Source: Cystobasidiomycetes sp. EMM_F5 | Lineage: Eukaryota | NCBI GenBank assembly: GCA_051047955.1 | Contig: JBPGPT010000005.1 | Location: 62,001 to 126,000, forward strand | DNA: 64,000 bases | Reading direction: 5' to 3' | Shown: positions 32,076-56,446 of the stretch, one piece after another | Layout: each line of letters begins with the position of its first letter | Position numbering within the stretch: the stretch's first letter is position 1 | The notes under the pieces: model-generated | Database searches by the model: none | What the model was told of the DNA's origin: nothing | The model's input: the letters and a program-made list of their open reading frames with translations, nothing else | Program-made: the position numbers and the translations under genes

Positions 32076-35000
32076 TTACGTGTCCGATGCGAGTTGGAAT
32101 TCGCAGTCTGTCCATCGCCTCAAGACAGATGCGTATATTTTGCCCAGGGACAGGCGGGTGCGCGTAGCATGCACTTCCATGAATGACGACATTGATAGAA
32201 CCACCATGACACGTGTACGAAGCGAAACCAACGGCGAATCGAGTATTCTAGTTGGTCCACCTGTCATAAAGCGCAAATATCTTATCAGTATGTTGCGAGT
32301 TGTGAAAGAAAGTGGATTGCCTGCCGTAGAGGATCCATCTACAAGCTGGATCGTCTTGTGGTTCTGCTGACCCCCCAATGCCAAGTCTGCCCAGTCGTTC
32401 CCAATCTACCGAGCCCGTAAGATCGTATGTCGGCTCTGTAAGATCGCTCTGCTTGCTCCAAGGAAGAAGAATAGAATAGATACAGATTGTGAGCGCTGCC
32501 TGGAAAGGCCCCAGAAACATCGGCAGTGTCCACGGCCCGCTCGCTTGAAGTAGAGATAAATCTTTTGCGTATCGTACTACTTGAGCTGCATGCAAAACCG
32601 TTCTGCGGGCTTCTATAGTGCCCGTCCAGTTCAAAAGAAGGTGTCGAAATGCCTCAGCCGCGCTCTCCTCCCCGTTCTGCCCTGCAGCATTATATATATG
32701 CGCGATGTTTGTGGAACATGACATGCAGAGCATATTCCACAAGAAGAACTCTGAAGTAGTATCGGCCAAACAGAGCAACGACTTGGCGGAAAAGTATTGA
32801 GCTAGATAAGCGAGAGCCGTGCCGATTCTTCTGGCGGGAGTCAGCCTCCTGTGCCAATGCGCAGTTATAGGAAAGCATGGCACTGACTGTGGGTCGGGCT
32901 GCCATTCATCATCAAGCATTCCCAGCTTTCGACATCGAATGTGCAATTGCAGTAGTGTCATGGCTGACTTAAGCTGGAGTGGTCTATGGAGCTGCCCGAC
33001 GGATTTCCCTTTCAGCAAATCGGACAACCAGGCTGACACTCGGACTTCTGTCGTGTCGGTAGTCGTCATAAGTTGTGCCCAGGCCTGTGCAGTTGTTGCC
33101 AGCCAGAGCGAGTCACTGCAAGGAAAAGCTGTTGCTATCTGGATGAGCGAATGTTCAGGAACACGTATATCGCCCGACAGCATGCTGAACCAGCAATCCG
33201 CAACTAGCAGACAATGCGCTAAGCTGCAATAGATGTTAGGCAGACACGCGGCCTCAACTTGACCCTAATAGGTACGTACCGCTTCGATGTTTCCTGCTCG
33301 ATAAATTTTCGCCAGCTGGATTCGATGTTACTTTCTGATGTCTGAAGTGAATTTATACCTTGAAACGGCGACACCGAAGCAAACAAGCCAACTTTTCGAG
33401 CGTGTTGTATGGCCATGATGTGCAAGGAATACGCGTGCCTCAAAGTAGGAACATCGCCGCCTATTGAAGCAAGATTGCCTCAGCATGATTTCAATTGCGT
33501 GCTTTGCGGACAGGATGAGTCACCGAGAATGCCAGCATATATGACCAGTACGAGGCACTGTAGCACATCGAGCTCCTGATGCATGTCGAAAGCACCCATG
33601 ATCCGCTCTTCCAGCGCCATTTGTACACGCTGCAGGACATTGCTCGAGAACGCTAATGCTTTGGGCGTCCCGATTGACTGGCGCATGGCGAGATCAGTGG
33701 GATGCGCAACATGGCTTACTAGACGTGCTCACGCGAGCGCCGTTGGCACACATTGACAAGAGACAAATGATCGACAGATTTTGGGAATTAAAAGTCGGGA
33801 TGTGGGTAAACCTGCGATGCATGTGGCAGGTAATTCAGCCACGGTTCATGACTGAAAGAGTATATTTCGTACACATGGACTCCGTAATGAGCTGAGAGAT
33901 ACTCCTGGAATAAGGGCCGGTCAATACGTCAAGGTGATGATAGTCCAGGGGCCTACATGCAATGCCGCCCCCAAGAAATCGGAATTGGGTAAATCAGGCA
34001 AATGGCCCACGGCTGGCGGTGGCTATAGGTGATCATAGTTTTAAGCTTCTCAAGCTCATTCGCCAACCGAATATCAGTAAGTGCAGCTTACGTCTCCCGA
34101 TGCTACCGACTTGATACTACTTGCTAGGGAAGGACCGTCTTCTACCAAAGGCCAGAGGTCGCGTACAGCTGAGTAACGTCGGGCCAGGTCAAGAGGCGAG
34201 AAAGGCAGCTGATTACAGACTCCTTCGGATGCGGCAGGACCTGAGCCGGCATTGGTGGTAACAACGTCACCTATACCGTCTGATAAGTTAAACGTGGGCA
34301 CCGAATCGTCGGTTGCGAGTGGCACTACGCCAGGGTCAAGATTCGCATTTTGTAAGACCGGAGTCGACAGCCACGAGCGGAAGGCATCGTCAATATGGTC
34401 GGTCAGTTCATACTGTACTTGTGGGTTGAAAAGGTCGATAACAGAATCATGCCACCTGAATTGGTGTAATTGGTGTAACTCCTGGGGATTGACACCGCTG
34501 CAGAAAGCTGTGTCATCAAACGGTCGAATGACCGAGCTTGCGGAAAAAGGATCCTGTCTGCTGACTGGATAAGCGTCTTGTGCTATAGCTTGCGACGCAA
34601 GCCGTTCTGGAACTTCCGCAATGTCTGCAAATAGATTCGCAATGTCTAGCTCGTCGCCGGGCTGTCTTTGCTGCTGTACGAGTTGAGACATGTCACGTTT
34701 ATTGCGTACACGTACAAGTCTGCTCACCGATCGCATGTCTAGCCGCATTTCGCCGTCATGGAATGCGTAGCGAGGACCAAGATTTGACCGCTCGGCGGCC
34801 GTAAGAGCGATGGGAGTGTCCGGGGCTGCCTGTTCTGCTTGACCAGCTCCTGCAGTTGTTCCTGCAACTAGATTGCTCAGATGCGGGCTGATATCCGTAC
34901 TCAATTGATCCGCATCTGGTACAAAAGTAGTTGAGACAACCAGGGGCTGTGTAGACAAAGAGTCAGGCCATCTGCTTGACCTCTGTTCAGGAGTATAAGA

Positions 35001-35584
35001 GCAATACGTGCCTCGCAGCGAGGAACGGACTGCTGGACGTGTGCCCCTATTGACGATGTTGGCAGGCCGTCGCGCTGCGGGGAAAAGGAAGATGCTTGGC
35101 CGAACCACGATTCCTGTGAGGACGAGAACAAGCCGCGAGAGATATCGCCCATTCGAAGCGTCTCAAGGTCTTCGCCTTGACCGCTGTCAGCGTTTTCTCC
35201 GTCTGGTTCCTGGGCATCATCAGGTTTGTCGGCTAACGTTATTGCGCTCATCTCCGCGCCCGGTAGAGCGTGTCTCCGCTCGTGTCTGGATAGCACATCC
35301 TTGCGAGCAAACGTTTTCCTAGTCGTGAAAGGCCGGATGGTCTTGGTCAGCGTCCTGCAAGCAGAAGCTGGCACGATGGGCGCTCTTGACTAACAAGCAG
35401 TAACGACAGGCGAATGGGCGACTACCGGAATGGACCCTCGCATGTCGAGCGAGATGCCCAGACTTTGAAAAAGTCTTGCCGCATCTTTGCTCGCTCAGAA
35501 ATCAGCCCATCTGTAGAGGTCCGGAAGCCCATGCCATGTGGCATGACCCCACTAAGCTCACTCATTGCAGTTGACTTGGCCCAT
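32076..35584 (-). CDS. Transcription factor with two N-terminal C2H2 zinc fingers plus a fungal-specific TF middle domain
   Basis: Spliced fingers [49 protein letters not shown]. Downstream [48 protein letters not shown] and [17 protein letters not shown] are typical of this fungal TF class. 3' end uncertain (32248 or about 32076). Confidence 0.88.
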
Positions 35585-35930
35585 GTGGCTTTCGGCTTCG
35601 AGACTGGCAGCTCGGAGTGCATATCAGGGCGTTGACTGCCGTATACGTTGGTGCGAGACTGGCTTGTTGGCCTAAGCTGAGCCGACTTTACCATTTGAGG
35701 GGGAACCTCTCACGCCCCATGCTCACAATGCAACAATGCGTACGGCGGCTGAAAGTGTGTAACTTCGCGCAGGAGCCGGTCTCATTCGTTTCCTCGCGTA
35801 GCCGCAACGGCAGAGATGAGTCTAATAAGCATACATTCCGTACACACGCGACAAGCCAATGCGTAAAGGAAGCACTGTGATCATGCGAGTATCTGGATCT
35901 AGATGGCCGCATCTTATCGTTATGGCGCCG

Positions 35931-37532
35931 TTAGATACCATTGCCGCCGGTCACCTGCAAAAATACCGTTCATCAGTCTTTGGACGGACTTTTGTATTGG
36001 CGAAGCAATTCAGCCCTGACCTCAAGCGTATGACCAGTCACATAGCTCGCCATCGGCGAAATCAAGAAGAGCACTGCCGCAGCCGCTTCCTCCGCTTTCG
36101 CTCCACGTCCCAACGGTATCTGCAATTCCGAGGGCGACAACATCAGAACGCCAATATGATATCCAGGCTGGTGAAACTCACGCCTGGTACAGGCTTTGAG
36201 CCGTCCCCGGATCCGCCTCCGGGAATACCGAGTGCAATCTTTTGACCATCCACAATGATTGATTCGCCTTTCTCCTTTGGCTGAGTCAGGCGTGTCTCGA
36301 TTAGACCACTGACGCCGCTGCGCACTTAGCTTTCTGACGTCGGCTGCGTACGGAAGTGTAACGCACAAGGCTACAGTATTACAACGGACGTTGAAGGAAC
36401 CTGTTCATTTAATGTGATCAGCGTGTGGTGAGCCCGTTTTCGTCGTGGATGGAGGATGGAGAACACACCCCATTCTTTTGCGACAGTCTTGGTCAAGCCT
36501 GTGATACCCTGATGTTTGAGAAAATACTCAGCAGCTTTCGAAAGATTAAAGTGATGAAGCTCACAGCCTTTGCGGTAGCGTCTATTTAGTTACAGATGTT
36601 AAGTGTAAGGAGACTGCGCATTCCTTACATCATATCAACACTGGGAGTCGACTTACAATTGGCTTGGCCAACGTTGCCATGCAAGCCTGCAATAGAAGAC
36701 ACATTGACGATTGATCGATTGGTATGTACGACCTTTGGATCTTTTGACCGTAGAATCCCAGCCGCGGCTTTGATAATGCCTACATATCATCATCATGATC
36801 ATCCATGTCTCGTCAATGGATATTTGAGTGCACGGATACCTACGAAACGGTGCGACATTGTGGACCCTCAAGATCAAGTCAAAGGTTTCATCCGACATTG
36901 TGTGCAGCATCTGTTCGGGATTGCCAAGGCGGACCGGTTGCCATCAGTCATGCGGTCATATATCGGTGCGTGTCACTCATACCTTATCTGAGAACGTCCG
37001 TGTGACATGATTCAGTAACGTAAATGATACGGACAGCGCAAGACCATTCGAGCTGCGAAGACTCACCGAAGGTGAAACCAGCATTATTAACAATGTGTGA
37101 CACTTTACCGTATTTGCTACAGAGCGATGGTTAATGCGATGCGTCAATAGGTTGCCTCACAACCCACGACATGGTCTTGTCAATCAGGGCTTTAGGGAAG
37201 TCGTCCGCCGTGATGTCTCCGGAAACTGCGTACGCGTCCCCGCCTGACCTCTGAATCTCTTGCACCACAGCCTGAGCTTTCGCTGTGATATTGGAGCGGT
37301 ATCAGAGAGTAGCGCATCTCCACCCTGACGGGGCAAGTATCGTAGACTTGCCATCGTCGATATCGCTGACTACGACTTTAGCGCCTTCCTTCGCAAACAG
37401 GACCGCGCATGCTTTACCAATGCCCTGAGCAGCTCCCGTGATGATGACAACATCACCCGCTATAAGACCGCTAGGATAGCTGTTTGTTAGATGGTTGCTA
37501 ATCGCCGAGAGTCTGTTGGCAGTAGTCGACAT
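35931..37532 (-). CDS. Classical short-chain dehydrogenase/reductase (FabG/3-hydroxyacyl-CoA dehydrogenase-like) with N-terminal PTS2
   Basis: VVIITGAAQGIG, VVVSDIDD, IVNNAGFTFDKMLH, NVSSIAGLHGNVGQANYATAKA (YxxxK), IPLGRGA and SPMASYVTGHTLE|VTGGNGI*. RLSAISNHL at residues 7-15 fits the PTS2 consensus. Confidence 0.92.
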
Positions 37533-37804
37533 GGCGGACGGAATATCTGGTACTCGCTCGATATGTAGTGAACAGCAACGTAGATGAGATTAGGGATGTC
37601 TGTGAGGATGTGAAGTAATGCAGAATGCTATTCACTCAGACAGTGGCCTGTTTTAGTGCACAATATACGGGTGGGGCCGCGAGATGGGGACGGCACAGCC
37701 ACTGGCTTCAGCTGGACCAACACGGGACACCAGTGCATCAATAATTTCCACTGAGCTGCCAATCGCTGGAACCAAGTACTGCTCGCTGCAGCCCACACAG
37801 CTAG

Positions 37805-39089
37805 ATGACGGATTCGGGGGCGGACCTGATGCAGCGTATCGCGGAGTTTGGTGCCGACAATGCGATAGTCAGCACGCACCACACGTCTTTACTTGAGGAG
37901 TTGAGGACTTACCTGCTTCATAATTGCCAGGACCAGCAAGCTGCCTTTACCTTACCATTAGTCGTTGAGCAGCAAAAGCAGAGGCTATCGCATTTGACGC
38001 AACCGCAGGAATACGAGTATGGAACACACGAGCGACACAAGCTGGACGTCTATCCTGCCCAAAGCCATGACCGGCACTCTGAGCGGCCTCCACTGCTTCT
38101 CTTCTTGCCAGGCGGTGGCTTTGCAGTCGGAGATAAGCGCGCTGCTCCCGGCGGTCAGCAAGCCCTCACGTATGTTGTGCCAGCACTTAGTGACATTCCT
38201 CCATCTGGACGATGCTCTCTCTCGACACGTCGAATCGACATCCAGTCTATGCTGGACTGGCAAACTATTTCGCTGCCCATGGTATTCCCTGTTTCAGCGA
38301 AACACTCGCGATAATGCCCTGACATATGGTTAACTTTGCATGACTGCTGCAGGGTTCTGCGTTGTCGTTATGAATTACCGACTGTTACGGCATGGTGCAA
38401 TTTACCCCGACGGGGCTAGCGACCTGGCACAAGCTTTGGCGTGGATTGGACAAGGCAATCTAGGGAACCGAGCAGATTGCAACAGTGTCTACCTTTTCGG
38501 GGAGAGTGCCGGGTAAGCAGGTATAGCATTCACTCATGGGTCAGCGGAGTCTTCCTGATCATACTGCAATTGTGCCGAACTTTGTCGGGCAGAGGTATGC
38601 ACATCGCGACACTACTCTATGGCAAATGCCAAGATTTCCAGTCTATTCCATCGATACCTGGAATATCGCTGCGGGGAGTAGTGTATTTGAGCGCCCCATT
38701 CGGAGGTGCGTCTCCACTGCCTCCGAACTGGCAAACATATTATGGCGGAGAAGCGGCGTTTCAAGATCATTCCCCGATTGCGCTACGACGGGCCAGCTCG
38801 GACAGAACCCCCACACTCATCGTCAGCGCAGACTTTGACATAAGCGCAGTTCGAAGCTGGGTAGGATGCCAGCATGCATTGGCCTCAATCATTGGCATAC
38901 TGACGCTACGGCATTCAGGTCGAGCCGTTTCGTAACGCTGTGCAGGCTGCGGGCGCTCCGGTACAAACTATTGAAGCGACCGGGCATAATCATGTCAGCC
39001 CGGCTGCTAGCGTGGGCCTGAACGAAAAAGCAGACCGATGGTGTCAAACCTTGATACAGTGGGCATATTCTCGTGTCATTCTGCAGTAA
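37805..39089 (+). CDS. Alpha/beta-hydrolase (HSL-family esterase / kynurenine formamidase-like)
   Basis: YGTHERHKLDVYP, oxyanion motif LFLPGGGF.VGDK, VVVMNYRL, nucleophile elbow LFGESAG, SADFD and GHNHVSP. Stop at 39089. Confidence 0.88.
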
Positions 39090-39383
39090 TATCTGGCTGT
39101 CAGGTATTTGGGGTCGAAGAGGAGTGCATCAATAGCTTTGCAATTCTAACGCAGCTATTCGCTCCGGGTTTCACTTGTAATCTGAATATGCATGCGTGTT
39201 ATTATGATATAAGAGCAGATTGAATGCTGAAGTCTGCTCACATCTCTTGGCCAGTATGTTTCCTCCTCACTCCAACCTGAGCTATGTCCAATTCCTGCAA
39301 TTGGGAATTACATCAGTGGGACTCAGGCTATACATTCAGAATTATTATCCTCGAGCTCGGCGCGCAGCCCCGGAGCCCGCCGA

Positions 39384-39572: not shown

Positions 39573-41494
39573 ATGCAGAACGAGATATTACTTGTCTATG
39601 GCGGCAATGGGATCACTGGAATGGCATTCATAGAGGCCGTCCTGAAGGAATCAGACACTGCCGGTAAGCGATAGATCCTGCAACTATAAGGCACTACAAT
39701 GGCAGTCTGAATCTTCCAAATCGACGCTTCCGTGCTCCACGGTACTAGTACAAAAGGTGGTCTGCATTTCGCGAACCACTCCGTTCGTCGATTTCCGAGA
39801 TTCTCGATATTCTCATTTGAAACTGGATCTTAACTCCGGGGCCGACAACATTGCCAGCACTCTGGAAACTGCTGGTCTCGGCAACGCTACTCAAGCACAC
39901 TTTTTCGCTTACATTTCCAAAGACTCGGAGGAAGAGCTGATTGGGGCCAATGTCCCCCTACTTCAGAAGGCAAGAGGCTTACTAGCGCCTTAATATTGAG
40001 CTGGTGTACTTTCCCCTGGGCTAATCAAGACGTCTTCTTCACAAACAGGCTGTCGAAGGCACAACGAAGGCGTGCCGTAATCTCAAAGTGTTTCACTTGC
40101 AGACAGGTTACAGTAAGTCTGGTGCAATATCGCCTACAATTCCTCGACTGACGCAGCCCACCTACAGAATATTATGGGTATGAGGCTTTTGAATCATCGC
40201 TGCAGACAAGTCAGAGCTAAGACAATCTCACAAGTGTGACCAAAGGAGGGGATCAAGTCGCGAAACAGCCATTCTCGGAAGATGCTCCGAGAACGCGGAC
40301 GAACCAGTAAGTCCAGGTGCTCCACAGATCGGCAATGAAACCTCTTAGTTCTGGGATCAGCTTCTACTATCCGCAAGAAGATCTTCTGAAAACTGCGTCT
40401 GCCAAGTATGGGTGGAGTTGGCTTGTGACGCGCCCCTGCATGGTAATCGGAGTAGCAAAAAGTGAGATGTAACCGCAATGCAGTATACACGAATGCTTAC
40501 AATTATTGGGCTTGCGGCGTGCCATGATAGGTAGCATCATGTCGGTACGTGTGCCTCGACACCCGGATTGAAAGCAATCGAACTGATTACGGACCCTTAC
40601 CTGCTGCCTAGATGTAGGCCTCCAGCCGAGTCTCCGAGTTTCGGCAAATAAGCTAATCACCCATTGGTGCGATCTGATAGTGCGGTGACGATCGCTCTGT
40701 ATGCCGAGCTCTGTCGCGCAACTGGCTCACCCTTCCGTTTCCCGGGTGCCGACTTCAGCTATTCCGTGCTTGGTCAAAACGTATGTCTTTCCATACGCTC
40801 TCACATGCATGACGGCAATCGAGGAACACGGGCTTAGATTGTCAAACCGTCGGCAGTCCACAGCCTGGCACAATGCGGCATTTCAGGTTTTCCTGTTACA
40901 GCGCCCGAATGCCTGGAACGAGGCATATAACATCTGTGACAACGAGAGCGGCGATCCATACACTGAGCTCTGGCCTAAGTTGGCTGGGTAAGTGAAGCAG
41001 TTTTGGCGAGTCTGCCATCCGCAATCCCAACACTAACGGTCGTGTCCACAGCTATTTTGGTGTTAAGGTGGAAGAGCCTCCAAAACTGCCGAGTACGGTG
41101 AAGATAGGAGAAGAAAATCACATAGCCTTCAGAACTGGCGAGTGGGCGCGTACACATGATCTGAAAAAGATTGCTCGTGAAGCAGGCTTGGACGAGAATG
41201 TCTACGACCTTGCAAGCTGGGACTTCTTGGATTGGACAACTACAATGCGAGTCTACAACATGTTGGCGGTGACAGCCATATTGATCATGCTTTCCAGGAC
41301 TTGGCCGGTCGTTGGCTCACTTGAGAAGGCCCGACAGATTGGGTGGGGCAAAGACAAGGATATTGGTACATACGAAGATGGCTATGTTCCCACGTTCGAC
41401 AGACTCAAGCAGTACAAGGTATTTCTACGAGCTACAACGCTTGTACACGATGATACTAAGTATACGTGGCCAGATCATTCCGTCTTCCCCGTAA
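39573..41494 (+). CDS. PRISE-like (progesterone 5-beta-reductase/iridoid synthase-like; SirQ-type) atypical SDR, putative enone reductase
   Basis: LLVYGGNGITG, VVCISR, LDL, HFFAY, LQTGYKYYG, PFSEDAPR, FYYPQED, WLVTRP, IALYAELC...FPG, NEAYNI and SLEKARQIGW are the diagnostic PRISE-family motif series. Highly spliced. Confidence 0.88.
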
Positions 41495-42098: not shown

Positions 42099-44657
42099 CT
42101 AATCATAGAAGGGCTCAACGTTAAGTCCGTGTAATGCTTCTTGAATCTGTATAGCCGCCACGTGCGAATAGTATCGCGAAATGGCAACATCTCCAGCCAT
42201 AATGATAAATCTCGGATCTGCCGTCGATATTTGGTGAGTCATGAAGCGGCCGGTAAGCTGAGGGACACTCACGACCAGTGGGTCTCCATGTGCCCCGGAC
42301 TTCGCCTTCAGCATTCAGACCCCATACATCCTCCATTGCGTCTGTAATGTCTTCCCCTACGATCTCGGCAGCTTGTAACCGCAAATTTTTGTCCCGGAAG
42401 CTATTGATAGATTGGGCAAGATAAGGCTAGTCAGCCTAGGTCTGTGAGGAGTCTTGTGCAGTTGGCCGTACTTACCCTGTAGCGAAGAGTATAAGATCGG
42501 AATCCAGAGCAGAGCCGTCCACGAAGGCAAGACCTGTCTCCGTGAAGCTGTCGATTGCGACTCCAGACTTAACTTTGATCTAGGTGTATGAGTAAGCAGT
42601 TGTCAGCCAGCCTCGCCATCGAATCGACTTTATCGGGACAGTACTGACGTGGCCATCTGCGATGAGCTCTGAGCAACCTATGTCGACGTAGTGGCCGCCT
42701 TGAAGAACGATGTATACTTGGTGAGCTTTTGTATATAGAATGAATGGTATCAACTCACCTCCTCGACCCAGAGTGTGCGCAAACAAATCGCCGTATCGAA
42801 GCAATTTGAAGCCGGCCGCCTCTAGCTTGTCGAAGCGTTGACTGGCGTAAAAAAACTCAGCTTCCGCTCGGAGTACGCAGGTCGGCGAAAGTCTACGCAC
42901 GAGTACTTCCTGATGAGATCATGTTGTATCCGCATCACCATAGCCCGTGTCACAGCAAGCGGCGTTCCGAAGGCGAAGCGATCAGACACCTCAGATGACA
43001 TGCGATCATTGTAGCCAGCTGCATAAATTGCATATGTATAGATCTCAGTAGACTAGCCCTACTGTAAACAACCAAATGCGCCCACCTCCCAGAATAGCTG
43101 CAAGGTACTCTCGCGGGATGACAAACGTCTTTTCGCGCTGTATTAGCGTGACTTCAGCACACCCGCTGAGATATAGGTCTTGCGCCATATCATGGCCTGT
43201 GCCGCATCTTGTCAGACGATGCGCAAACGCAAGGAAGTAGCAACTCTACCTGAGTTGGCAGTGCCGATTACTATGGCTTTCTTGCCTCGCCAGGTTTTGC
43301 CATTCATGTAAGCAGATGAATGCACTATGTCTCCTTTGTAGAGCTCCTGTCCAGGTTTGAAGGTAAATGAGCTGTCTGTAGAAGCAACGGAAGCAGGAAC
43401 GTACGCGATTGGGAAGTAGCGGCATACTAGGCCTTTGGCTGCCCGCTCCCGCCGCGAATACAAGGAAAGAGGCTGTCACCTCCTGCGAGCTCTCTGACTC
43501 GTGGGAGATAGTCGGCTTGAGCTGTATGAGCCACGAGTGTGCTGAAGTATCGTACTTTGCGGCGATGACCTCTGTAGACGTCCGAACAGGTACTCCGGCT
43601 GCAGCAGCTAAGGCGCGGTACTGGTCCGCGACCCTGGCAGTAGGAACCCACTCCGGAACATCTTTTGAATATGGTAGGTAGGCAGGATGTCCTGTGCGCA
43701 CAGCGATGAGCTCAGAGGGATTCGCGCACGTAGCCAAGATTTTGCCTTACCGTAGGCTTTCGGGGTGTGGAGACAGAGCAAATCGTATCGGAGTCTCCAG
43801 CTATCGCCGGCAGCAGCATTCTTGTCTATCACCAGGACTTTCATCCCCATTCCGCACAAACGCGCACCCAGCTGAGTCCCATTCTGTCCTGTATGGATCG
43901 TATGTGAGATGCGGTACACAGTTTGAGGATACTTTACATACCCGCGCCAATGATAACGACATCGTATGCAGAAAGATGCCCGTTGCTTCGTCTCTCGCCT
44001 GTATTATCCTCTATATTTCCATTGGGATTGCCATTTGCGTTGTGTATAAAGCTAGGCACGGCCTCCTTTTCCTGCTTCGTTGCGACAGGGTTTACATATG
44101 GGTGGCCCTCTAGAGACTCGACAGTGGAGGAGATGATCCAGAACTTCCACTGGTTATTCGAAGAGCCGGAATCGGGGATAAGGCGAAATGCTCCAGAACA
44201 TAGGGCAGCGGGTCGGGAAGTCTTGAAGTTGTAGAGGCCTTGGATCCAAGCAAGGCCTGGTATTGGAGGCTTGACCTTTTCGGCAGTGCCGTTCTGGAAC
44301 ACCAAGTCGTGCACGCCAGCTCGCGGCACTAGCGTTTCAAGGGCTGATTTGACCTTGGCGCGCCCGGTAAACGTCCTGAGTGTGCCGCTCAGAGCGATCT
44401 GCAGGGTGGAGAGCCTTTAGCATACGCATTGATGTTATCGTTCAAGCGCGTGAACTGACCTGGTCGCGAAGGAAAGCATCGCTACGGAAAAGTTGTTCCA
44501 GTGCGGACCATTCCTGTCGTTGGATTGTATCGTCTAGACGCTTGATCATAGACTGACAGACTGCCTCCGCATCGACATTGTCCGGTATGGAGATGTCACT
44601 CGGCAGAGTATAGTCCAAATCGCCGGGGTGGATTGGGGGGATCTGAAGGCGAGCCAT
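42099..44657 (-). CDS. Flavin-containing monooxygenase with N-terminal extension (class B, type-II FMO/YUCCA-like)
   Basis: Extended N-domain (LFRSDAFLRDQ...SGTLRTF), DVVIIGAG|QNG, GDSWRLRYDLLCLHTP, FMO fingerprint variant YKGDIVHSSAY, KKAIVIGTANSG|HD, GGHYVDIGCSELIADG, LFATG and DVWGLNAEGEVRGTWRPTG. Confidence 0.9.
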
Positions 44658-45207: not shown

Positions 45208-47806
45208 TTACTTGGCGGATGCCAAGCTCTCGAGCTGGAGCTCGTCATGCTTGCCTTCGTCTGCTGGACTTGCCGCTCGAAGGGCGCTTGCGTAGTCAGT
45301 GCTGGACATGTTCGTGGTGCTGTCTTTAAAGTTGGCGGTGACACGCGGGACATGATACGGGATAGGACCACCGATAGCACGAAGGCGATGACCAAAGATC
45401 TGCAGAACGGGGACCACAAGGAAGCAGCATCCGTTGATGATGGTCAGCATCGAGACTGCGAGTCATCTCAAGCTGCCTTAGCGTCATGTATGCGAGCGTT
45501 GATATTCACGCTTTACTGACATGCATAGATGGGCCCTTTACCCAGTGTCAAGTCGAGCACTACATGCCGTGCGAGAGCAAGTCAGCATTTTGCATGCCAC
45601 AGATGAAACACACGCACTGTAATAGCTGAGCACAAAACCACCGAGCACGCGGAAGAACTGTAACGCCAGAAACTCGTCGGCGGAGAGTTACGTCTCTCGG
45701 AACAACGGCTCACGTTGATCCAGCCCGCTGATGTAGAGTATGATGTCAGCTTCCGATGCTCGGACACACCGCATAGATATCCTGCGTACAAATCTCGCCG
45801 CCAGCGTCTGGGTAGCAATCAAGAACATATTGGTAGAACCCGGTCATGCTCTGCCTCCTGCATATGTCAGTCTCGTTATCAAGGCCGGACCGGATCAAAC
45901 GAACCATCATGATCCCAGCCAAGTAAGAAGCCTGCACACACACGTACCAGCCTCGCCAGGTCAGAAGATGGACAGCTTCTAATCAATCGCGAGATCGCTT
46001 ACCCAACCGACTGCAACCCAAATGTAATGCCACCGACGCTCGAGTGCGTAGCCGAAGATCACAAGACCAACCAAGAGAGGTCCACAGCCGATATAGTTGA
46101 CCCACAGCCGGACTTCGGGCTTCCACTGGCCGCCAGAACGTTTGATATACGTCCGTTGTATGTAACCGTTAATGATGTGCCCGGCAACCTCGCCGGTAAC
46201 TACGCCAATCATCTGTATTCGCTCTGGTTGTCTCAGTGCTTGCATGTTGCGTATTTCATAGTGATGACTGCCTTACGGGAGCGATGTAGAAGGCTGCCAG
46301 ATTCTTGTACTCGAAGCCATAACTTACATTCATGAGAACACTGATTGTTGTGGCAACTGTATCGAAAACGAAATCAGCACAAGACTTTGACAAAGGGCGT
46401 TCGCGTACTGCCAATGACGCCCAAGAAAATCAAAGAAATCACAACCCCGACCATGGCAACAACCGGCCTGGTCAGAACGCTGGTCTCGGCGGAAGCAGTA
46501 TAAGTACACTGCGTATTTTCGATCATTGTAGCGAACTCACACAAACGACCGGATCCATGCTTCTTTTTCGGTATACGATGTTTTCGGGCGTGAACGGCCT
46601 AGACCAGAGGCGCGACTGATCCACGCTGCAGTTGAGGGTTGCTCAGACGGCGCTATGGCCCTATTATACCTGTGAAATAAAGCGGTTTCACATTTAGCTG
46701 CTTCCGGCGACGCACGATATGTGTGTGTCGTTTGTGTCGTTACTTACCAAGTCTCATCGCAGAAGAGAAGCAGGAGAATTAGGGACACGCCGCTGAGAAC
46801 TGCAAATTGGCCAAATGCCCAGTGCCACAGTGCAATGTTGGCGGGATTGACGGATAAGACGCCGTTGGCGATCAAGGGACCGAGATAAGGCGATAAAATC
46901 CAGAACGACGTCCACTGGATAGTGTTCTCTTAGCAAAATCTTTTAGGTTTGTGCAGATGGGTCCACTGACTAGATTGACCATGGCAACCTGCTCGTGAAA
47001 AAAGTACATGTCTATATAGTAATACAGCTGACATCAGCGTGTTTCTCGAGCTGAGCGAAGCTGCAGTCACCTTTGATGATCATGAGGCCAGTTGCCTGGC
47101 ACGTTGCGGAAAAGAAACCATTCAGGATGCGGGCCGCCAAAAAAGTATTGAAGTCTTCAGCCGCCGCGCAGAGTATTGCAAATATGATGGATAGTGTCGT
47201 CATCCAAATGACCACGGGCAACCTGCCGTACACCTGGGACCACGAGACTGCAAAGACGCCGCCGATACCTGGGACTTTGTCAGTGTCGGACCGCAGGCTG
47301 GCCTGGGCAGGCTGACAAACCTAGCATGGCAACGTTTCCAGACTAAGAAGTGGTTATATCAGGCTTCATAACACACTGCAGCATTTGCGTAGACCTACTT
47401 GTGAAGACAAAATGGTGTTAAGGGAAGCCTGCCAGTAGGTAGCTTGCGGGATGAGGGTAGCCGCACCCGTCGCACTGCCATAATCCGGCAAAACTGCCGC
47501 GACTGCAGTAGATAGCAAAACTCCCAGTTTCTTGCGGGATGACCAATTCAGTGGATCTTTGCAGTCTGTACAGGGATCAGCGAGGAGCATGGTGTACATT
47601 ATCTCGCGCCTTCTGGAGCCTCACCATCGGCAGGCTGGTAACGCGGTTGAAATCAGTACGGGCCGCGAGCTATGAGCAGGTAAACCAACCTGAGGAACCA
47701 ACACGATGTGACCGCGCTTCTTGAGAGCTGCGCCTGCCGCACCAAGTTGGACATCTGACACGATGTGTTCCGCTCCCTCGAGATCGATTGTTGGAGTAGC
47801 CATCAT
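45208..47806 (-). CDS. Major facilitator superfamily transporter (DHA1-like)
   Basis: HIVLVPQ, DPLNWSSRKK, YGRLPVVIW, FLAARILNGFF, WKPEVRLW, YVLDCYP, GWIN|FFRVLGGF and LQIFGHRLR, with many TM segments. Confidence 0.9.
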
Positions 47807-47919
47807 CGAATCTACTAGTACCGAGATACTGCTAATGTTCTACAGGTGCCGAAGGGGGCAGAGGCTGTAAAGACAGCCATTCGACTCGAAGCTTTCGCCT
47901 GGGGCTCCGGCAAGGGCGC

Positions 47920-48118
47920 GACCCCACCAGCACAACATCTGCCAGGTCCCAATCTTGGTGTGGAACATGGGGTCCAGCAACTTAGCAATTGCTTCGGGAT
48001 GCCTTGCAGCTTAGCCTTAGAGATACGATGAGTTACAGAGCAGCCAAGGGACGCAAATGCATACGAAGCGACGAGCACGAATGGTTTGTTCGGCAGTAGG
48101 GAGCGAAGACGACCCCAC
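47920..48118 (-). promoter_or_regulatory. Two GACCCCAC motifs (47920, 48111) plus ATGGGGTC (47967) upstream of the MFS gene
   Basis: Read directly, 110-310 bp upstream of the MFS ATG. Confidence 0.45.
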
Positions 48119-49248
48119 CCAACATCGCCAGGATACACACATGTTCATATCGGCCTAGACGGAGAAGATTTGTCATTACTGAAGATCATGTAGCTTTCTC
48201 AGATCACAAAAGGGCTGAAAGGCGTCGCTTGCTTCAGCGATAAGCAGTCGCCAGAGTTTGCGCCAGTCAGCTTGCGACAAAGTTGGCACGAGGCGCTTTA
48301 TTGATGTCTACTAGCTTGTAGAACATTATCTTCTCCACTCCTCGCGACTGAACCGCTCCCGGACAATGATGTGTATCGCGGTACCGGCTCGCGCACTGGT
48401 GGCCCGCCTTTTGTTTCAACGTCGACAGCTATGAGCCGCAGGCCGACGCGCTTCACGACGTTCGTTGCCGGTCTTCAGCCATGCCAGCAGCATTTTCGGT
48501 CGGACCCCTCAAGACCGTCCGAAGCAAGTAGGATCATAACGGAGGCCGCATGATTTTGTCCATGCTAGGAGCGGACTGAGGAGAAGCTGGATGGAACCAG
48601 TAGCCCACAGGCTAGTCTGCAATACTCTGGCGGGCCATCTCCTCACCCAGCAATGGCCGCCTGCTCTCGCCTGGAACGCTGACGCTTTAGCCGATCTTAC
48701 CGCTGGACGGCCATCGCTAGATGGATAGCCGCGTTGCAGTGACGCCTAGCTGTTCACGCAGAACTCCTGTGCTGACCGCACCAAAGGCAGAGGGTCTGGA
48801 GTCAGATGCGGCTGTTATGCCGGTGGTACTACATCAAACTTGCTTTCTAACAGTGCGCCCGAGCACAATGAACGTCTGCAATCTTCTCTCGAACATGTCA
48901 TTTCTCTAAGTGAATGAGCGTTACTTCGACCAAAATAGGCAGTCTCAGCAGAGCCGACAGGGAGAGGGAGAAGCAGAAGCACCTATGATTGGATTCGGCG
49001 CTCCGATGGTCATTTGTGTCTCTGATCATAAGGACAGTGGACACTTTGGCTAGCGCAGTCCCGCCGCGTACGCGACAGTCTTTTTGTAAAGGAATGCGCA
49101 CATTGAAACGTTGTCATCACATTCTTCTGAGTCCCAGTGACGCTATAAGGCCTGCGAACATTTTGTATACCAAACATTTCCCGTATGCGATATATACCAT
49201 GCCATCGATAGCGGATGCCCGTACGAATGAATAGACCAGGTTGCTATT

Positions 49249-51424
49249 TCACGCCCTTCTCTGCAAGCGCACATCCAGCTTGTTGGCCAGCGCGAACTGA
49301 CCGAAGCTGTCAGTTCTGTGATGTCCGTCCGAACATTTGTGGCTATCTCACTGACCCAGTGATTCTTGTACTCGAGCGGGATTGACGGGTTGACAGGCTC
49401 AATTGTGAATGCGTGTAGGATCGCAGGAACCGCTAGCCGCATTTCTAGCAGGCTAAGATTCTTTCCTATGCAGGTGCGAGAGCCTCCCCCAAACTAACAT
49501 CACGATAGTCAGCAGAGTAGACAGGGCTATTTGCAGCGTCACTCCTATTGAGACGCTTGACACACCGAGAACATGTACTTGTCCATTCTGGACGAAACTT
49601 CCCTGTCCTTGGTAAGCCATCGGTCAGGTCGGAACTCTCTGCATTTTTCACCAAATATTTCCTCGTGCTGATGGATCTGCCAAGCACTGACGCCAACTTG
49701 AGTCTGTGATAGAGTAATTCAACATATCAAAAAAGTTGGCTGAGGCCGTCGTTGCATACCCCTGCCTCGAAATATCGGCCGGCGAGATGCACACCGCCAG
49801 GAGGAACTATCCTTGGCAGCGGATACGACACAGCTGGATGTATACGAAGTGCTTCCTTGACGGTGGCCAAGAGGTATGGCATTTCGGCAGCCTGTTCCAT
49901 ACATTCTCAGCTGCTATCGCGTCACTCTGAGGGCGAAGGAGTCCTTTCACCTCGGAAGCAGATATCGTACCATCCTCAGCAAAGCTTGCGGCCCGGGAAT
50001 CTATCTCTTCCATAAGCTTGCCCAGTACAGTGGGTGTGCGGAGTAGCCAGTAAAATAGGGCTGTCATAGTAGTTCCCGTCTGAACGGTGATAGTTCAGCC
50101 ATTGTATCGTTTAGTTCCACGCGAGTCCTATGACAAACCGTTTCACTACCTGCAGCCAAGGCGACTTGGGCGGCTTGCTTGACACGATCTCTGTACGGTG
50201 ACAGATCCGGGTATGCTTCATCTGTTTTCCCTTCATATGCCTTCATCAGAACGCTCATCTGATCCGAATGCGAGTCAGCATCCGCTTCGTGACGCTGCAA
50301 CTGTCGTTCAAGAAACTGGGCAGGCGAGCGCACCAGGTCAGCGAAGCGCCTCTTTACTTCGTTAGACTTGCTCACCTCGGCTGTGAATGCGAAGCCTTTC
50401 GTAATCGCTGCTGGAGCCGCCATCTTACTGAGAAGGAACTGCGACAGAGGGAATCGCCCGACCTGTTCAAAAAACCATGTCAGCCGCGGGCTTCAATAGT
50501 CAGCGGGGTCTGACTGACGTGAGCCGCGACAATGTTGGCTTGGGAGAACTAATAGCAAGCTTGATTCAGCTGTGAACGCCGAAGGTCAGCATGATGACAA
50601 GAGCAACTTGCAGAATGCATCAAGCCAGACTCGTCGCCGTGCTCAATCGCGCCTGTGTATACACTATCGGCCCACCCCAGCCCCAAAATTGCTCATGTCT
50701 CACCGAAGGCTTCGCCACAGCTGACAAGCGAGCTCAAGTCGAACGCCAGGCTTTCTAGCTTGAAGCCAAGGTTCACCACAGTTTGACCATCGCTAGAGAG
50801 GTCCAAATTCTTGAGAAGGGAAGTTACACCTTTTCGCATCACTTCTTCCAGACCCAACATGGTTTTCATGGTGACTGTTGACATACGGGATCAATCGATG
50901 CGCATGCAGCACCCCATCAGTGTCGATACTCACATGCGGGACCGTACCAGCGTTTCAGCTGGCTGTGGTAGCCATCATTGACTGCGTTGAATGGGTTGGG
51001 TTTATGCTGAGGATTACCGAAGGGAGGATAGAAACTCGTCTTTATAAATCCCGTTGCAAGTCCGTCTGCGCGCGATTCGATAATCAGCATACCATATCCT
51101 TGCTAAATTTGTCACGAGCCGCTCCATACAGATAGCTGGAATGGCTTCGGGTTCATCTATGCAGACTTCATTGGGAGCAATTCGAACGACCGGGCCGTAT
51201 TGAGCGTGCAGCGTGTCCATGCGGTGGGGCCAGTCTCCGTCTACAGACATCTTGGCCGACCACAGGTTAGTAAGCGACGCGATGAAGGGGCCTGGACAAT
51301 GTGCAAGAGGATGCCAGAACCGCATGTAGATTATATAGGCTGCTACTGCAGACAGAGAAGTCGTGAGCAGCAGAATTGACATGGACGAGGCATCATCAAG
51401 CCATGTCATTGTGGATGAGAACAT
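49249..51424 (-). CDS. Cytochrome P450 (resembles the pisatin demethylase/benzoate hydroxylase-type clan)
   Basis: N-terminal TM then HPLAHCPGPFIAS, YGPVVRIAPNE, I-helix AAGSET|T, KEALRIHP (ExxR), FRPDRW and heme motif FGGGSRTCIG. Ends ...VRLQRRA*. Clan assignment is tentative. Confidence 0.93.
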
Positions 51425-51519
51425 CGTATGTAGCGCTATACTAGTACGGGTTGTGAGCAAGCGCTGCTAGAAAAGGTTTAAGGGGTTAAGTTGCGAAGGG
51501 AACGAGCTTGATGGGAGAT

Positions 51520-51536
51520 GTGGGGTCAGCGGGTCC
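51520..51536 (+). promoter_or_regulatory. GTGGGGTC followed by GCGGGTCC upstream of the P450 gene
   Basis: Read directly, about 100 bp upstream of the P450 ATG. Confidence 0.45.
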
Positions 51537-51815
51537 GATGCTGCGGAGCCCCGCGGAAAACGAGGTGGCGTACTTCGCCGCCTGTCAATAGCGCTTGGTG
51601 TCCGGCTACGTCCGTCATCTAGGAAGCACATGATTACTCCGCACGCAGCCATGAATTTATGTAAGCTTCTCTTCACCTTGTTTGGCCGTGCGATAAGGAC
51701 TCCACTACCTGACAGAAACGCATGCCGGCTACTGCAGGGCACCGAAGCGAACGTCTGACATGACTAGAACTATCAAAGCGTCTCTTCCCGGTCCAATCGC
51801 GTCAATGATTGGGGG

Positions 51816-53840
51816 TCACAACTTGAAACCTTGGGTGGCAGCCTGACGTATCTCCTGCCGTACACCAAAATCCAACAAAATCTCTTCGGAGCCCTGCAGG
51901 AATACGTGTATTGTTGTTGAATTAGCTAGGTCGACTCGTCCTTCTGCGTGTGAACGCACTCCTGGTATAGCTACTGATTTGGCATCCCGTCGAATGCGTT
52001 CTACCCGTTCACCTTGTCCGCCTGTTGATGTCAATGCATTAGCAAAAGTCGCGCAGCCGCCAATGTATGATTGAGACCGCCTGACCTCGTGTGATGCCAA
52101 TTCCCCCTAGTATCTGGACAGCTTCTCTAGCCACAAGTTCTAGCGTCATACTGCAATGAGCTTTCATTAAGGCGGTAGTTCCACCAAGCCGCCTGTTCGC
52201 TTCTTCATGACTGAGCTTGTGTATGGCGTATACGATAGACTGCGTTGTCGAACACGTCATCTTATTGTTAGCGGGGCTCGGGTAGTCTATTGAAGCAGTC
52301 CCCACCTCGAGCCAAGTCTGCTGGGACTCGATGCAGCGGGCCATATGTGCGAGCTGATGCAATGATCATTAAGAGTCGACGACGCAGAAGGTTCGCGTTG
52401 TTCAAGCAGCTCACCTTGTTGCGAATGACCTCGCTTTCAATGAGAGCCTTTCCAAAAACTCTCCGCTTATGTGCGTAGTTAATCGTGTCCTCGAGGCAGC
52501 ATCTCGCAAGCCGTTGCGCGGAAATACCGATAAGCAACCGTTCGTGATTGAACTGCGAGCTGGCCTAAGACAAGGAAGCGCAGATTCGGATCAGACTTAC
52601 ATTAGTAAGAATCATCTTGAATCCTTCGCCCTCCCTTCCGATAAGATTTTCTTTTGGCACTTCGACATCCTGTGGTCGTAGCCGAGGTCAGCTGGATTCT
52701 CACCGGGCAGTGTGGGCATTTCTACGTACCTCAAAATTGAGCAGCGTAGTGCCCGCAGCCCACTGCCCAGACATCAGCATCTTGTTTCTCGTTACTCCGG
52801 GGCCATTTTCGATGAGAAGAAACGAAATACCAGCCGGATCTCCAGGCTTTCCGGAAGTGCGTACTGCAGTAGCTGTACAAGCATGCGTGAGCCTCGCATC
52901 GGCCCTGTATTTTCGCTTCGTGCTCACTGAAGTAATCCGAGTACATGCCACAAGTGATCCACCTGGAGTCAATCAGCCTTTGTTGCGGTGACGTCTCGTA
53001 TTGATTGTTTGCTTACTTTTTAGTCCCGCTGCAGGAATGAAGGTCAAGCGTCGGAGGGCTGCGCAGATCTGAGCGGCTCGACTTACTTTACAATATAGCT
53101 GATAGGACACAGTCTCTCAGCCTTGAATTGATAGCAGAAGTGATGCGGCAGAAACCCTTACTGCGTGCCAGCAGAGTTAAGTTTGGCAGATGTGGAAAGA
53201 TTTTTGACATCACTGCCCGCCTGAGAGGAGAGACACCGTAAGAGTGTAAGTCTGATTTGGGATGGCCGCAGCTCGCCTGTGGTTCAGTGATCGCCAGGCA
53301 TAGACGCTTGCGACCAGAGAAAATGTCCGGCAGTACTCTATCCTGTAGTTCTTGCGAGCCGTAGTTGTATATAGGAGGACAGCCTATCTGGAGACTACCG
53401 ACTGTAGCTTGGCCGACACCGACTGATGCACATCTGTGCAATTCATCAATCATGATCATATCATGACTGTCAGAGCCAAGCAGGCTTCAGCACCGAGTTT
53501 GTTTGCGGCCGTTTCTTATGGTGTCGTTGACCTACAATCCATCCCAATCTTGCGCCTTGACGCCTCCAAAAACAGTACCGTCTGCTTGTGCCCAGCGCAG
53601 CGGGACGCGGGGCCCGAATGCGAATGCAGCCAAGAGACCAGCTTTTGCAAAGGCCTGGTAAACGTCCGGATTGATTGCACGGTTTTCTTCCCATTCATAT
53701 GCTACATCGAAAGTGTGCTCGTCAAAGAAGGCCCGCGCTGCTCCTCTCAGGCTTTGATGACTCTCGGTATAGTAGGGAGATGGAATGGCCTGCGCCATTA
53801 CCGACGTATCAGGGGTCTGGGATGATGATGGGTGCATCAA
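51816..53840 (-). CDS. Acyl-CoA dehydrogenase (fungal type), C-terminus GFKL
   Basis: SPYYTESH, RLCLAITEPQ|AGSDV, YIVNGTKKWITCG, TAVRTSGKPG, GISFLLIE, FNHER, RRVFGKALIESEVIRNK, AREAVQILGGIGITRG and AIPG|GSEEILLDFGVRQ. Confidence 0.93.
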
Positions 53841-54195
53841 GACACTGCAAGGTCAACTCACTCGATACCATTGCGGCTCCGCAAAGGGGGTCGTAGACCC
53901 AAACGATACTGCTGATGATTCAGTACTTGTGGCCATAGGTGTGGATGCCATGTTCTGCAGCTCCGTCAAGACGTGATGAGTCGTGGTCGATGAGCATTGA
54001 CGATCTTAGCAGTCATTCAGCTATATCACTTCGGGCTTGTTGGTGCGGACCCACCTATACCCACCTTGCCACCAGGCATGGTGGAGAGATGGCTAGTACA
54101 CCGGTGCGTTGCGCGATCTACGTCTGACCGTCGTTCCAGGAGCGATACAGAGCCTGCCGACACATATACTGCCTCCTCTACGTAGAAACGTCGCA

Positions 54196-55020
54196 ATGTC
54201 CAAATTCCTCAGTCAACCTCGAAGGGTTGTTACCTTTCACGACGATGACGGCAATGCGTGGGACCGAGCTGTTGCGCCATGCTGGATGTCTGGACTGACT
54301 TGCACCGTGCCAGATGTGTGTGGAAGGACGAAGTACCCGAGCCGGTGCGGGTATGTGCGCCTGGCACTCCTGCCGGCAATCTCACTGTTCGCGTGACGGA
54401 GATATGGCATACTGAGAAGGTACGGCAATCTGATCCTGTACGACAATTCCTCGCTGTCGTAAGCTAAGAATGTATTGCTATGAGAATCCTGACGATAACG
54501 CCTCTTCCCGTGATGTCGCTGGAGAAATTACAGCTAAGGGTGCTCTCTCCGCCCTCCACTACGATCATGGTGCAGTTTTGTCAGTATGGGCGTGGTCCGA
54601 AGAAGCCCTATTCCCGCTGACGATGCAATTGTTGCAGCCGAACAGTGGACTTTCCCCCAAATCACGGCGACAAGTCGCATCGTACACAAAGCATAGACTT
54701 TGCCATGGTCATATCTGGAGAGATCTACATGGAACTCGAGCCAGGACAAGAGATCCTACTCAAGACCGGCGATACTCTGGTGCAACGAGGGTGAGGCACG
54801 CTGTTCAGTGTTCAGTCTTGTGCTACTCTGACACCGAGAACCCTACAGAACGATCCACAAGTGGATTAATCGAACTGATGCATACACACGAGTACTGTTT
54901 GTATTGCTTGGCGCACAGCCGCTCAAAGCGGAAGAGGTAAGCAGTTTGACCGTGATGAGTGGTCTTTCAATGACAGAAGGAGTCCAGGCAAACAAAGCAG
55001 ATTATAACCTGAACGAATAG
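54196..55020 (+). CDS. Cupin-2 barrel protein
   Basis: PRRVVTFHDDDG, HRTQSIDFAMVISGEIYMELEPGQEILLKTGDTLVQRG|TIHKWINRT...RVLFVL. 3' end approximate. Confidence 0.85.
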
Positions 55021-55147
55021 GGCTAGCAAAACAAAAGCGTGTGCAATATGTTGTATCAGCATTGAATCGGACAGCGGGATGTTATGTTCGATGTAATGCA
55101 GGGTTGTAGTCTTAGGTTGTAGTCTTGGCTTACAACACGGGGCTTGC

Positions 55148-56446
55148 CTACATTTTCGCGCTTTCCTCTACTTGCTCTAGCACTGCCACCCCGCCAGACA
55201 AGCAAGGTTTCCCATTGACTTTTTGAACAAAGTCAAGCACAGTAGTATTGCCATCCCGCTTGCGCAGCCAGATGGAAGTCTCGAGCTGGTCACCAGGCAC
55301 GACGGGACTACGGACAGAGTACATCGGCGCCACCCATCTGCAGTACAGGATTTAATTGGGACGTACGATGTAAATCTAGCACTCATATACTTCAGTTGAG
55401 CAGACGAACCACCATATTGCATGATCGCCCGAGCGGCATGTCCTGAATGGCATGTTGGTCAGCTGATTGTGGACCCTTACCAAAATAGTTCACGCTACCG
55501 ACCATAACTGCAGAGGCCATGGAGTATGGCACCAGGGAATCCCATAGCCTTGCCGAGAGCAGGTTGGACATGTAGCGGATTGAAGTCGCCTGAGCCAGCA
55601 GTAATACAACCAGAAGTTAGACTCTTCTTGTAACCTGAGCAGCCTGTCAAAAGCCTTTACCGGAGAGGCGGTACAAGACTGCTTGCTCTGGGCTGGTATT
55701 GTCTGTATACACACCATCTGGGCGACTGTTCGGCGGCCTGGAGGCGCCCTTCGCTGGCTGAGAGCGCGGCAGACTCTTGCTGAATCCACCGCTGTCAAAT
55801 TTGCCAAAACAGTATGCACTTGACTGTTGAGACGCAACGATACGCGCATCAGCCGATTCCAGCCATTCACACAGAGACGAGCTGCGCACCACCATATGAA
55901 CGTAATCTTCACCATCTGGCCCCACTAGCGCTTCCTCCTCATCCACAATGAGACCTTTGCCAGTGTCTTTGATACCGATGACCCGCTTGGTGATCTTCCA
56001 ACCTGAGTCAGAATTAGCTGGAATGGGTTTGAGTATCGTGATACTCTGCTCGGCATGCTGTTCATGCAGATATCCTCTTATTATTCAGCATAGAACCCTG
56101 TATTAACTTGGCACGTACCACCATCCTCTTGGGATCCATAATCGGAAGACCCGGTGCAAGACCTGCTGCATTCTTCATCATTGCGAAAGGCGCAATGTCG
56201 GAATGATCGCCCTTCAGATCAAGCACCAGCGGGTAAGTGGGGAAGGGCCGCCATCGCGCGTTGTTCTCATCCAGGAAGCAGAAGTCGTCCCGCTTGGCGC
56301 CAATCTGAAAGTAACGCATGAATGAAATATTTGAATGGAGATCCGATAGGCGTACGCACTCCTATGGCATACAGTAGTATGTCACGCTGGTTCCACGCGA
56401 CTGGTATAGCTTTCAGCTGGGCCCCCAGGGCTCGATCGAGGTCCAT
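55148..56446 (-). CDS. MaoC/hot-dog fold enoyl-CoA hydratase 2 (peroxisomal dehydratase) with PTS1 (AKM)
   Basis: WNQRDILLYAIG|IGA, FPTYPLVL, HAEQSI, hydratase-2 motif YRLSG|DFNPLHV...ILHGLCSYG, MSARFTS|PVVPGDQLETSIW. Ends EESAKM*. Confidence 0.92.

Follow-up and report, generated by a model that had tools for sequence, protein, structure and literature searches.

What would ten contiguous metabolic and regulatory genes, with no backbone synthase among them, do for a fungus, and how did they come to lie between two copies of the conserved housekeeping gene Ssu72? The question is raised by a 64,000-nt stretch of DNA from Cystobasidiomycetes sp. EMM_F5 (contig JBPGPT010000005.1, positions 62,001 to 126,000; G000:C199:62001-126000 in our numbering), below called the window, in whose coordinates positions are given. 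The host genome is fungal, intron-rich and 18.3 Mb in size, and a tree of 22 Ssu72 sequences places it within the Pucciniomycotina, where the sampled Microbotryomycetes are its sister group (support 0.93). The evidence leans towards a 25-kb catabolic, co-regulated island feeding peroxisomal β-oxidation, an uncharacterized cluster whose general kind is well known but whose gene composition and border are unusual. That the same island follows one specific order of ene-reduction, Baeyer-Villiger oxidation and lactone hydrolysis is possible but doubtful. Two facts about the locus are new and can be checked directly: the Ssu72 bracket and a word common to the upstream regions of the block.

Ten genes and a common upstream word

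All ten genes can be spliced in the models without an internal stop, using GT-AG or GC-AG introns (4 to 16 per gene; GC-AG in 6 of the 104 modelled). The models were made by splice-aware dynamic programming with manual correction of junctions and use the sequence only, the junctions of the transporter and the transcription factor (TF) being the least sure. The confirmed order is TF(-), short-chain dehydrogenase/reductase (SDR)(-), esterase(+), PRISE-like reductase(+), flavin-containing monooxygenase (FMO)(-), major facilitator superfamily (MFS) transporter(-), cytochrome P450(-), acyl-CoA dehydrogenase (ACAD)(-), cupin(+) and enoyl-CoA hydratase 2(-), with 272 bp between the divergent SDR and esterase genes and 244 bp between the divergent ACAD and cupin genes. 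A Pfam scan, run on exon frames rather than whole spliced proteins, called zf-C2H2, adh_short, BD-FAE/Abhydrolase_3, FMO-like, MFS_1, p450, Acyl-CoA_dh_N/_1, Cupin_2, MaoC_dehydratas and MFE-2_hydrat-2_N. Models and Pfam thus bear out the ten contiguous genes, the order and the two divergent pairs of the original prediction; its left border at 32076 has to be moved, the TF model ending at 32248 with an uncertain 3′ end. Two models require microexons, which restore family-like sequence at the level of the model: 2 nt at 40612-40613 in the PRISE-like gene and 5 nt at 36983-36987 in the SDR gene.

The block had also been described as lacking a backbone enzyme, and this holds: no polyketide synthase, non-ribosomal peptide synthetase or terpene synthase family occurs among the open reading frames (ORFs) scanned in the window and 20 kb on each side (94 of the 150 listed flank ORFs in one scan, the rest in the other), nor did these Pfam scans reveal, within the block or close to it, any gene for a transferase, a cyclase or a backbone enzyme. 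Genome-wide, PF00109 identifies one ketosynthase (G000:C184:12522-18353), which has a MaoC match 5 kb away and is taken for fatty acid synthase, together with two thiolase cross-hits; this count is a lower bound because the mitochondrial ketosynthase was not found either.

Three of the genes would cover consecutive steps of β-oxidation; two of their products carry a clear peroxisomal targeting signal (PTS) and the third a weak one. The SDR (35931-37532, minus strand, 293 aa) is 3-hydroxyacyl-CoA dehydrogenase-like, has the classical catalytic motifs (TGxxxGIG, NNAG, YxxxK) and carries at its N-terminus the PTS2 RLSAISNHL (RL-x5-HL). The stand-alone hydratase 2 (55148-56446, minus strand, 308 aa) is built from double hot-dog halves, matches PF01575 and, below threshold, PF22622, and shows the motif YRLSGDFNPLH (YRLSGDxNPLH) and a C-terminal PTS1, AKM. 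The ACAD (51816-53951, minus strand, 447 aa) has the ACAD domains and the catalytic Glu, and ends in FKL, a non-canonical PTS1. Its Glu aligns with Glu255 of 1EGC, which we take to be the medium-chain ACAD mutant made to resemble the long-chain enzyme; the residue would then occupy the position typical of long-chain and isovaleryl-CoA dehydrogenases. No PTS is seen on the esterase, PRISE-like reductase, FMO or cupin, and the P450 has a membrane anchor.

Are these three simply the housekeeping enzymes? Each has an unlinked paralogue: on contig C113 for the SDR (60% identity, 3 of 11 intron positions in common), on contig C201 for the hydratase (49%, ending SHL, 0 of 6) and at C199:377 kb for the ACAD (57%, ending AKL, 1 of 13); Fox2, on contig C221, is separate from both sets. 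The low identities and the few common intron positions indicate that the cluster copies are old and extra ones.

The upstream regions of the block share the word GTGGGK. An unbiased k-mer count ranks GTGGGG and GTGGGGTC at the top in these regions, and GTGGGK is present in 8 of 8 upstream regions of transcription units, with 12 sites against 1.2 expected (35547, in TF intron 1, 37671, 39384, 44796, 44808, 47922, 48113, 51520, 54049, 54059, 56579 and 56631, the set spanning 35547-56636). In the background it occurs in 13.5% of 1479 windows, or 15% of their low-coding half, and a word equally rare was common to eight random windows in 2 of 3000 draws. The upstream stretches of paralogues contain it in one case out of seven, at -403. 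A regulator is at hand in the TF itself (32248-35584, minus strand, 898-aa model), which has two C2H2 fingers and a long C-terminal region in which Pfam called no Fungal_trans domain; by the recognition code, the base-contacting residues of the two fingers predict GYG-GGK. From sequence, then, the ten genes are probably co-regulated by the resident C2H2 factor through predicted GTGGGK sites, and if so, the predicted site would ease induction screens. Two of the GTGGGK sites, and at 47974 a near variant, fall in the 1.4-kb gap at 47807-49248, which has no Pfam or Rfam match.

A candidate route into the peroxisome

How might these enzymes work together? The two-finger factor would switch the island on through the GTGGGK sites. 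Outside the peroxisome, the P450 would hydroxylate a lipophilic substrate, probably a cyclic one, water on a hydroxy-enone may be moved by the cupin, the PRISE-like enzyme would reduce a conjugated C=C bond with NADPH, the type II FMO would insert oxygen beside a ketone and the serine hydrolase would open the ester or lactone. A CoA ligase encoded elsewhere would activate the saturated acid, and within the peroxisome the cluster ACAD, hydratase 2 and PTS2-SDR would shorten the acyl-CoA, with a thiolase acting in trans. An ACAD is required only for a saturated acyl chain, which would fit a reductase acting upstream. Such a ring-opening route had been proposed from the start. The coherent backbone-less unit on which it was built stands (targeting signals, extra paralogues, upstream motif, island structure), while the route itself is a reasonable hypothesis that gained no direct support as to substrate, import or Baeyer-Villiger chemistry. 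Likewise, the supply of ligase and thiolase in trans stands in so far as both families are present elsewhere in the genome (PF00501, 16 matches; PF00108, 12 matches). PRISE-like reductases and N-extended type II FMOs are known mainly from plants or biocatalysis. If the proposal is right, the island would be a compact candidate for a natural role of the former outside plants, and of the latter.

The FMO (42099-44657, minus strand, 629 aa) is N-extended as expected: the group is marked by some 160-200 residues ahead of the first GxGxxG, and in the model this motif lies near residue 218. The extension matches SnoaL/NTF2-like clusters (0.91) fused to FAD-binding domains and has no PDB match. The remainder contains the Rossmann motifs GAGQNG (GxGxxG) and GTANSG, an ATG motif and the fingerprint YKGDIVHSSAY (YKGxxxHxxxY), in which Tyr replaces the first Phe of FxGxxxHxxx[YF]. 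The only PDB match of the FAD-binding exon is JsFMO (8ACS, E 1.6e-9). With JsFMO, FMO-E/F/G and PsFMO A-C it shares the N-extension, both Rossmann motifs, the FMO-type fingerprint and His216 (PMC10028610; this and the other papers are cited here from excerpts, to which what is said of them is limited). Baeyer-Villiger activity is reported as a trait of this group, with no natural substrate stated in the excerpt; JsFMO and FMO-E/F/G show no conversion of cyclohexanone-type ketones, which the PsFMOs do convert (PMC10028610). Asp217 and Tyr458 of JsFMO are replaced in the cluster enzyme by Thr and His, although each single active-site mutant of JsFMO merely halved the activity (PMC10028610). His at the Tyr458 position is found in 9 of the 10 readable non-bacterial or unlabelled relatives. 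Identity is 28-32% to bacterial full-length relatives and 30-34% to the named full-length relatives, all uncharacterized fungal FMOs. As the architecture fits the group and two of the three named active-site residues differ, the Baeyer-Villiger activity claimed in the original prediction is, from sequence, plausible and not implied. Further FMO-like paralogues lie on contigs C210 (L158/L159), C180 (L163) and C3 (L096), the one on C180 aligning across the N-extension too (23-32%). At two actinobacterial loci (L169, L185) an ACAD and several SDRs are found no more than 8 kb from the N-extended FMO.

The PRISE-like reductase (39573-41494, plus strand, 380 aa) has GGNGITG, TGYKYY and HFYYPQED, so that all the motifs which we take to define the family (GxxGIxG, TGxK and FYYxxED, with the catalytic Lys and Tyr) are present. 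PF22917 has no other match in the genome, and the Atlas score of the protein is 0.95 to a cluster in which 19% of members are annotated as PRISE; against the PDB entries of progesterone 5β-reductase and iridoid synthase E values reach only 0.15-0.37. Homologue searches with single exons of this gene, and with a single ACAD exon, returned nothing, which is weak evidence. The fungal enzyme GsfE presumably has a PRISE-type fold. It reduces an enone C=C bond in griseofulvin biosynthesis (PMC11669671). An open-access literature search found no paper linking PRISE enzymes (defined in PMC12968361), fungi, GsfE and ene-reductases, and the excerpt of PMC5536155 had nothing on peroxisomal ACADs.

The α/β-hydrolase (37805-39089, plus strand, 327 aa) has its triad motifs, with a PGGG oxyanion loop, a GESAG nucleophile and a C-terminal His, and its PDB matches are not significant. 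The P450 (49249-51424, minus strand, 505 aa) has an N-terminal anchor, AGSET, EALR and the heme Cys motif. The MFS protein (45208-47806, minus strand, about 543 aa) carries DPLNW, which we take to be a motif of the DHA1-like family. DHA1-like transporters are mostly exporters, and the import role given to this protein earlier is therefore unsupported. The Cupin_2 protein (54196-55020, plus strand, about 195 aa) has 3ES1 and 8X0U as best solved relatives, the second presumably being StrC. Some fungal cupins, StrC and PaltE among them, have cyclohexenone intermediates as substrates (PMC13463297); others are epoxidases (PMC12720273).

Several points weigh against the catabolic, co-regulated island and the chemistry proposed for it. 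On regulation, GTGGGK was first noticed by eye and the TF window was widened to take in intron 1; one site lies upstream of the Ssu72 pseudogene; GTGGGG also fits a CreA/Mig1-type repressor; and over the whole 24.4 kb the exact 8-mer is not significant after correction (246 genome copies; p 2.4e-5 x 32,896 = 0.79). No CoA ligase or thiolase gene was shown to have the extended motif upstream, and the PTS1 on the ACAD is weak. The PRISE call is built on sub-threshold fragments, PF22917 having matched two of the nine exons scanned with E values of 8e-5 and 0.019 (22.2 and 14.4 bits against a cut-off of 27). As for the FMO, it departs from JsFMO at two residues, and of 20 bacterial full-length relatives 19 retain His-Asp and 18 GYY. 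Finally, none of 41 bacterial FMO loci has a PRISE, esterase, hydratase 2, cupin, P450 or MFS homologue within 8 kb; an ACAD and an SDR occur within that distance in 2 of the 20 full-length loci.

Other readings and known systems

The closest precedent for the back end is the p-coumarate route of Rhodotorula toruloides, in which the dehydratase is peroxisomal and stand-alone and, like the PTS2 reductases (RLSAVSGQL, RLQQVQGQL), distinct from the fatty-acid enzymes (PMC7873862). The likeness extends to a PTS1 on the dehydratase, the 3-oxoacyl reductase-type SDR and the targeting peptide itself, RLSAISNHL being near-identical to RLSAVSGQL of R. toruloides 10558. However, the p-coumarate table, as excerpted, has no ACAD, PRISE-like reductase, type II FMO or cupin (PMC7873862), whereas the cluster has no CoA ligase or thiolase and its genes are contiguous. 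The likeness to 10551 and 10558 is one of motif, and the unlinked paralogues may be the true counterparts. For the front end, the limonene/carveol route of Rhodococcus erythropolis DCL14 proceeds by hydroxylation, ene-reduction, a Baeyer-Villiger monooxygenase, a lactone hydrolase, CoA activation and β-oxidation (PMC7794910, a review). The resemblance is confined to the order of the reaction logic; the DCL14 route is bacterial, and the type II FMO and PRISE-like reductase are merely candidates for its roles. Most economically, and by analogy, the cluster would resemble a DCL14-type carveol route joined to a Rhodotorula-type module. The hxn nicotinate cluster of Aspergillus nidulans is likewise fungal and catabolic, and is controlled by a Cys2His2 factor specific to the pathway, HxnR, an arrangement termed unusual (PMC5746545). 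It differs in its enzymes and phylum, and HxnR has the PF04082 domain that was not called in the cluster TF. The excerpt of PMC5746545 yielded no HxnR binding motif.

Could the cluster be catabolic without any Baeyer-Villiger ring expansion? The substrate may from the outset be a coumarin- or butenolide-like compound, an unsaturated lactone or ester, which the PRISE-like enzyme would reduce and the hydrolase open, leaving an arylpropionate-type acid to be shortened by β-oxidation, with the FMO and P450 serving for hydroxylation or heteroatom oxidation. We regard this as unlikely, and the weight given to it is part of that given to the catabolic reading as a whole. It would account for the resemblance of the back end to the p-coumarate module, for the two departures from JsFMO and for the failure of several N-extended FMOs on cyclohexanones (PMC10028610), but leaves aside that the FMO architecture belongs to a group with Baeyer-Villiger oxidation as a reported trait and that cupins of such kind, if 8X0U is indeed StrC, act on cyclohexenones. 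Less likely still is a role in biosynthesis, the cluster tailoring and exporting a metabolite that derives from fatty acids or is otherwise backbone-less (an oxylipin or lactone), with peroxisomal chain shortening as a biosynthetic step. The DHA1-like look of the transporter and the enone reduction by GsfE, with its presumed fold, would suit it. The cupin, ene-reductase, SDR, P450, MFS and TF together are also the set of the palt (palitantin) cluster, which like the alkyl-salicylaldehyde clusters acts on a cyclohexenone (PMC13463297). Those clusters have a highly reducing polyketide synthase, however, in place of which the block has three of the four β-oxidation steps, an FMO and a hydrolase, and with the lower-bound count of ketosynthases the genome shows no polyketide one beyond that read as fatty acid synthase; the scanned surroundings, like the block itself, lack any transferase, cyclase or backbone gene.

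A different objection is that there may be no single pathway at all, the genes serving two or more unrelated functions or forming a chance aggregate of accessory genes between the Ssu72 copies. In its favour, the cluster is compositionally host-like (GC 0.518, inside the background range; tetranucleotide distance 0.083 against a maximum of 0.082 in 20 background blocks). A chance aggregate would, however, have to produce ten consecutive intact metabolic and regulatory genes that stop sharply at the repeats, two tight divergent pairs, a word common to 8 of 8 upstream regions and peroxisomal signals that match on three successive steps of a pathway, and of the readings of function we consider it the least probable.

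The Ssu72 bracket and its surroundings

A self-comparison of the window by blastn reveals a direct repeat, 30506-31823 against 56902-58226, with 85% identity over 1337 nt in the same orientation, and apart from one 38-nt match elsewhere no other repeat. Both repeats (minus strand) are Ssu72, the sole two matches to it in the genome, and they flank the block; the homology ends at the stop codon and reaches about 150-155 nt upstream of the gene. The right copy (model 58066-56905, 306 aa) is intact in frame, with PF04722 and CX5R, the latter across intron 1. The left copy (model 31667-30509) is a pseudogene, with an in-frame stop at codon 15 (31625-31623) and a compensated frameshift. In the 188-codon core the two differ at 16 amino acids, and the left copy is altered at a Pro, a Thr and an Asn kept in 81, 81 and 80 of 81 outgroup matches. 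The tree gives the right copy a branch length of 0 and the left one of 0.093, all core amino-acid change thus falling on the left branch.

The divergence of the pair is a mosaic. Overall, synonymous divergence (dS) is 0.36 and non-synonymous divergence (dN) 0.041, from which it follows that most of it arose with both copies functional. By segment, dS is 0.25 in codons 1-45, 0.047 in codons 46-112 and 0.99 in codons 113-188, with dN at 0.02-0.07 throughout (0.067 in the last segment), and a 123-nt run is identical between the copies (permutation p 0.002). We infer that two long-separate working copies were joined or kept together and swapped a tract, after which one decayed for some 0.02-0.03 substitutions per site. 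Some other explanations can be set aside: an assembly artefact for the repeat, by the 85% identity and the decay on one side only; RIP-like mutation, by the balance of synonymous differences (C>T 10 against T>C 7); a transposon-type mobile element, as the scanned frames of the window contain no transposase or recombinase Pfam family, and of terminal repeats or a short target-site duplication the blastn self-comparison gave no sign beyond the Ssu72 repeat and the 38-nt match; and recent transfer from a distant donor, by the host-like GC, the many introns and an FMO merely 28-34% identical to named relatives.

How did the block come to lie between the copies? The bracket suggests entry as one unit. 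In its most detailed form, a cassette carrying its own diverged Ssu72 would have entered by homologous recombination into the resident gene, leaving two chimeric copies and a near-identical crossover tract. Its genes would provide a eukaryotic pathway for ring cleavage, with a PRISE-like reductase and an N-extended type II FMO both working on one natural substrate ahead of peroxisomal β-oxidation. As a whole this is improbable. Under entry by recombination, decay of one copy would lock the cassette in, because a pop-out through the shared tract would leave a damaged phosphatase; if true, a fungal cluster may arrive or be held without a transposon, via recombination in a conserved housekeeping gene. 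Alternatively, and to this we give a nearly even chance, Ssu72 was duplicated in tandem in place long ago, both copies worked and were partly homogenized by gene conversion, genes were recruited between them without transfer, and the left copy was lost recently. The host-like composition agrees with this, and the identical run together with the stepwise dS fits repeated conversion of nearby repeats. Yet two redundant copies would have had to stay under strong purifying selection to a dS near 1, and the β-oxidation genes of the cluster did not arise by recent local duplication. Only the loci of relatives can separate recombinational entry from an in-place duplication. A metagenome scan gave 80 Ssu72 loci with no close relative (best identity 74%), so that an empty site could not be seen; these loci held no homologue of a cluster protein (tblastn, 1e-4) or of a flanking gene (1e-2). 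An open-access literature search found no paper on fungal clusters between direct repeats with circular intermediates.

Outside the block the neighbours are housekeeping genes: PMT, ATG8, MBF1, tubulin, squalene epoxidase, RRP6, RPC82, CAS1, a ZNF598-like RING gene and CTF4. The window has no Rfam match. Immediately to the left, 27074-29904 contains long ORFs of low complexity, which have proline-rich motifs, look arrestin-like by eye and match no Pfam family, and to the right a 1.1-kb gap at 58226-59337 has neither Pfam nor Rfam match. An AMP-binding gene at 9600-10800 looks by eye like a long-chain acyl-CoA synthetase; it lies 21 kb from the cluster and outside the repeats, and no reason was seen to link the two. 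Two adjacent ORFs without Pfam match, 3497-4732 and 5849-6796, show weak mutual similarity (38 nt at 84%, and tblastx segments) and are probably a tandem pair of paralogues.

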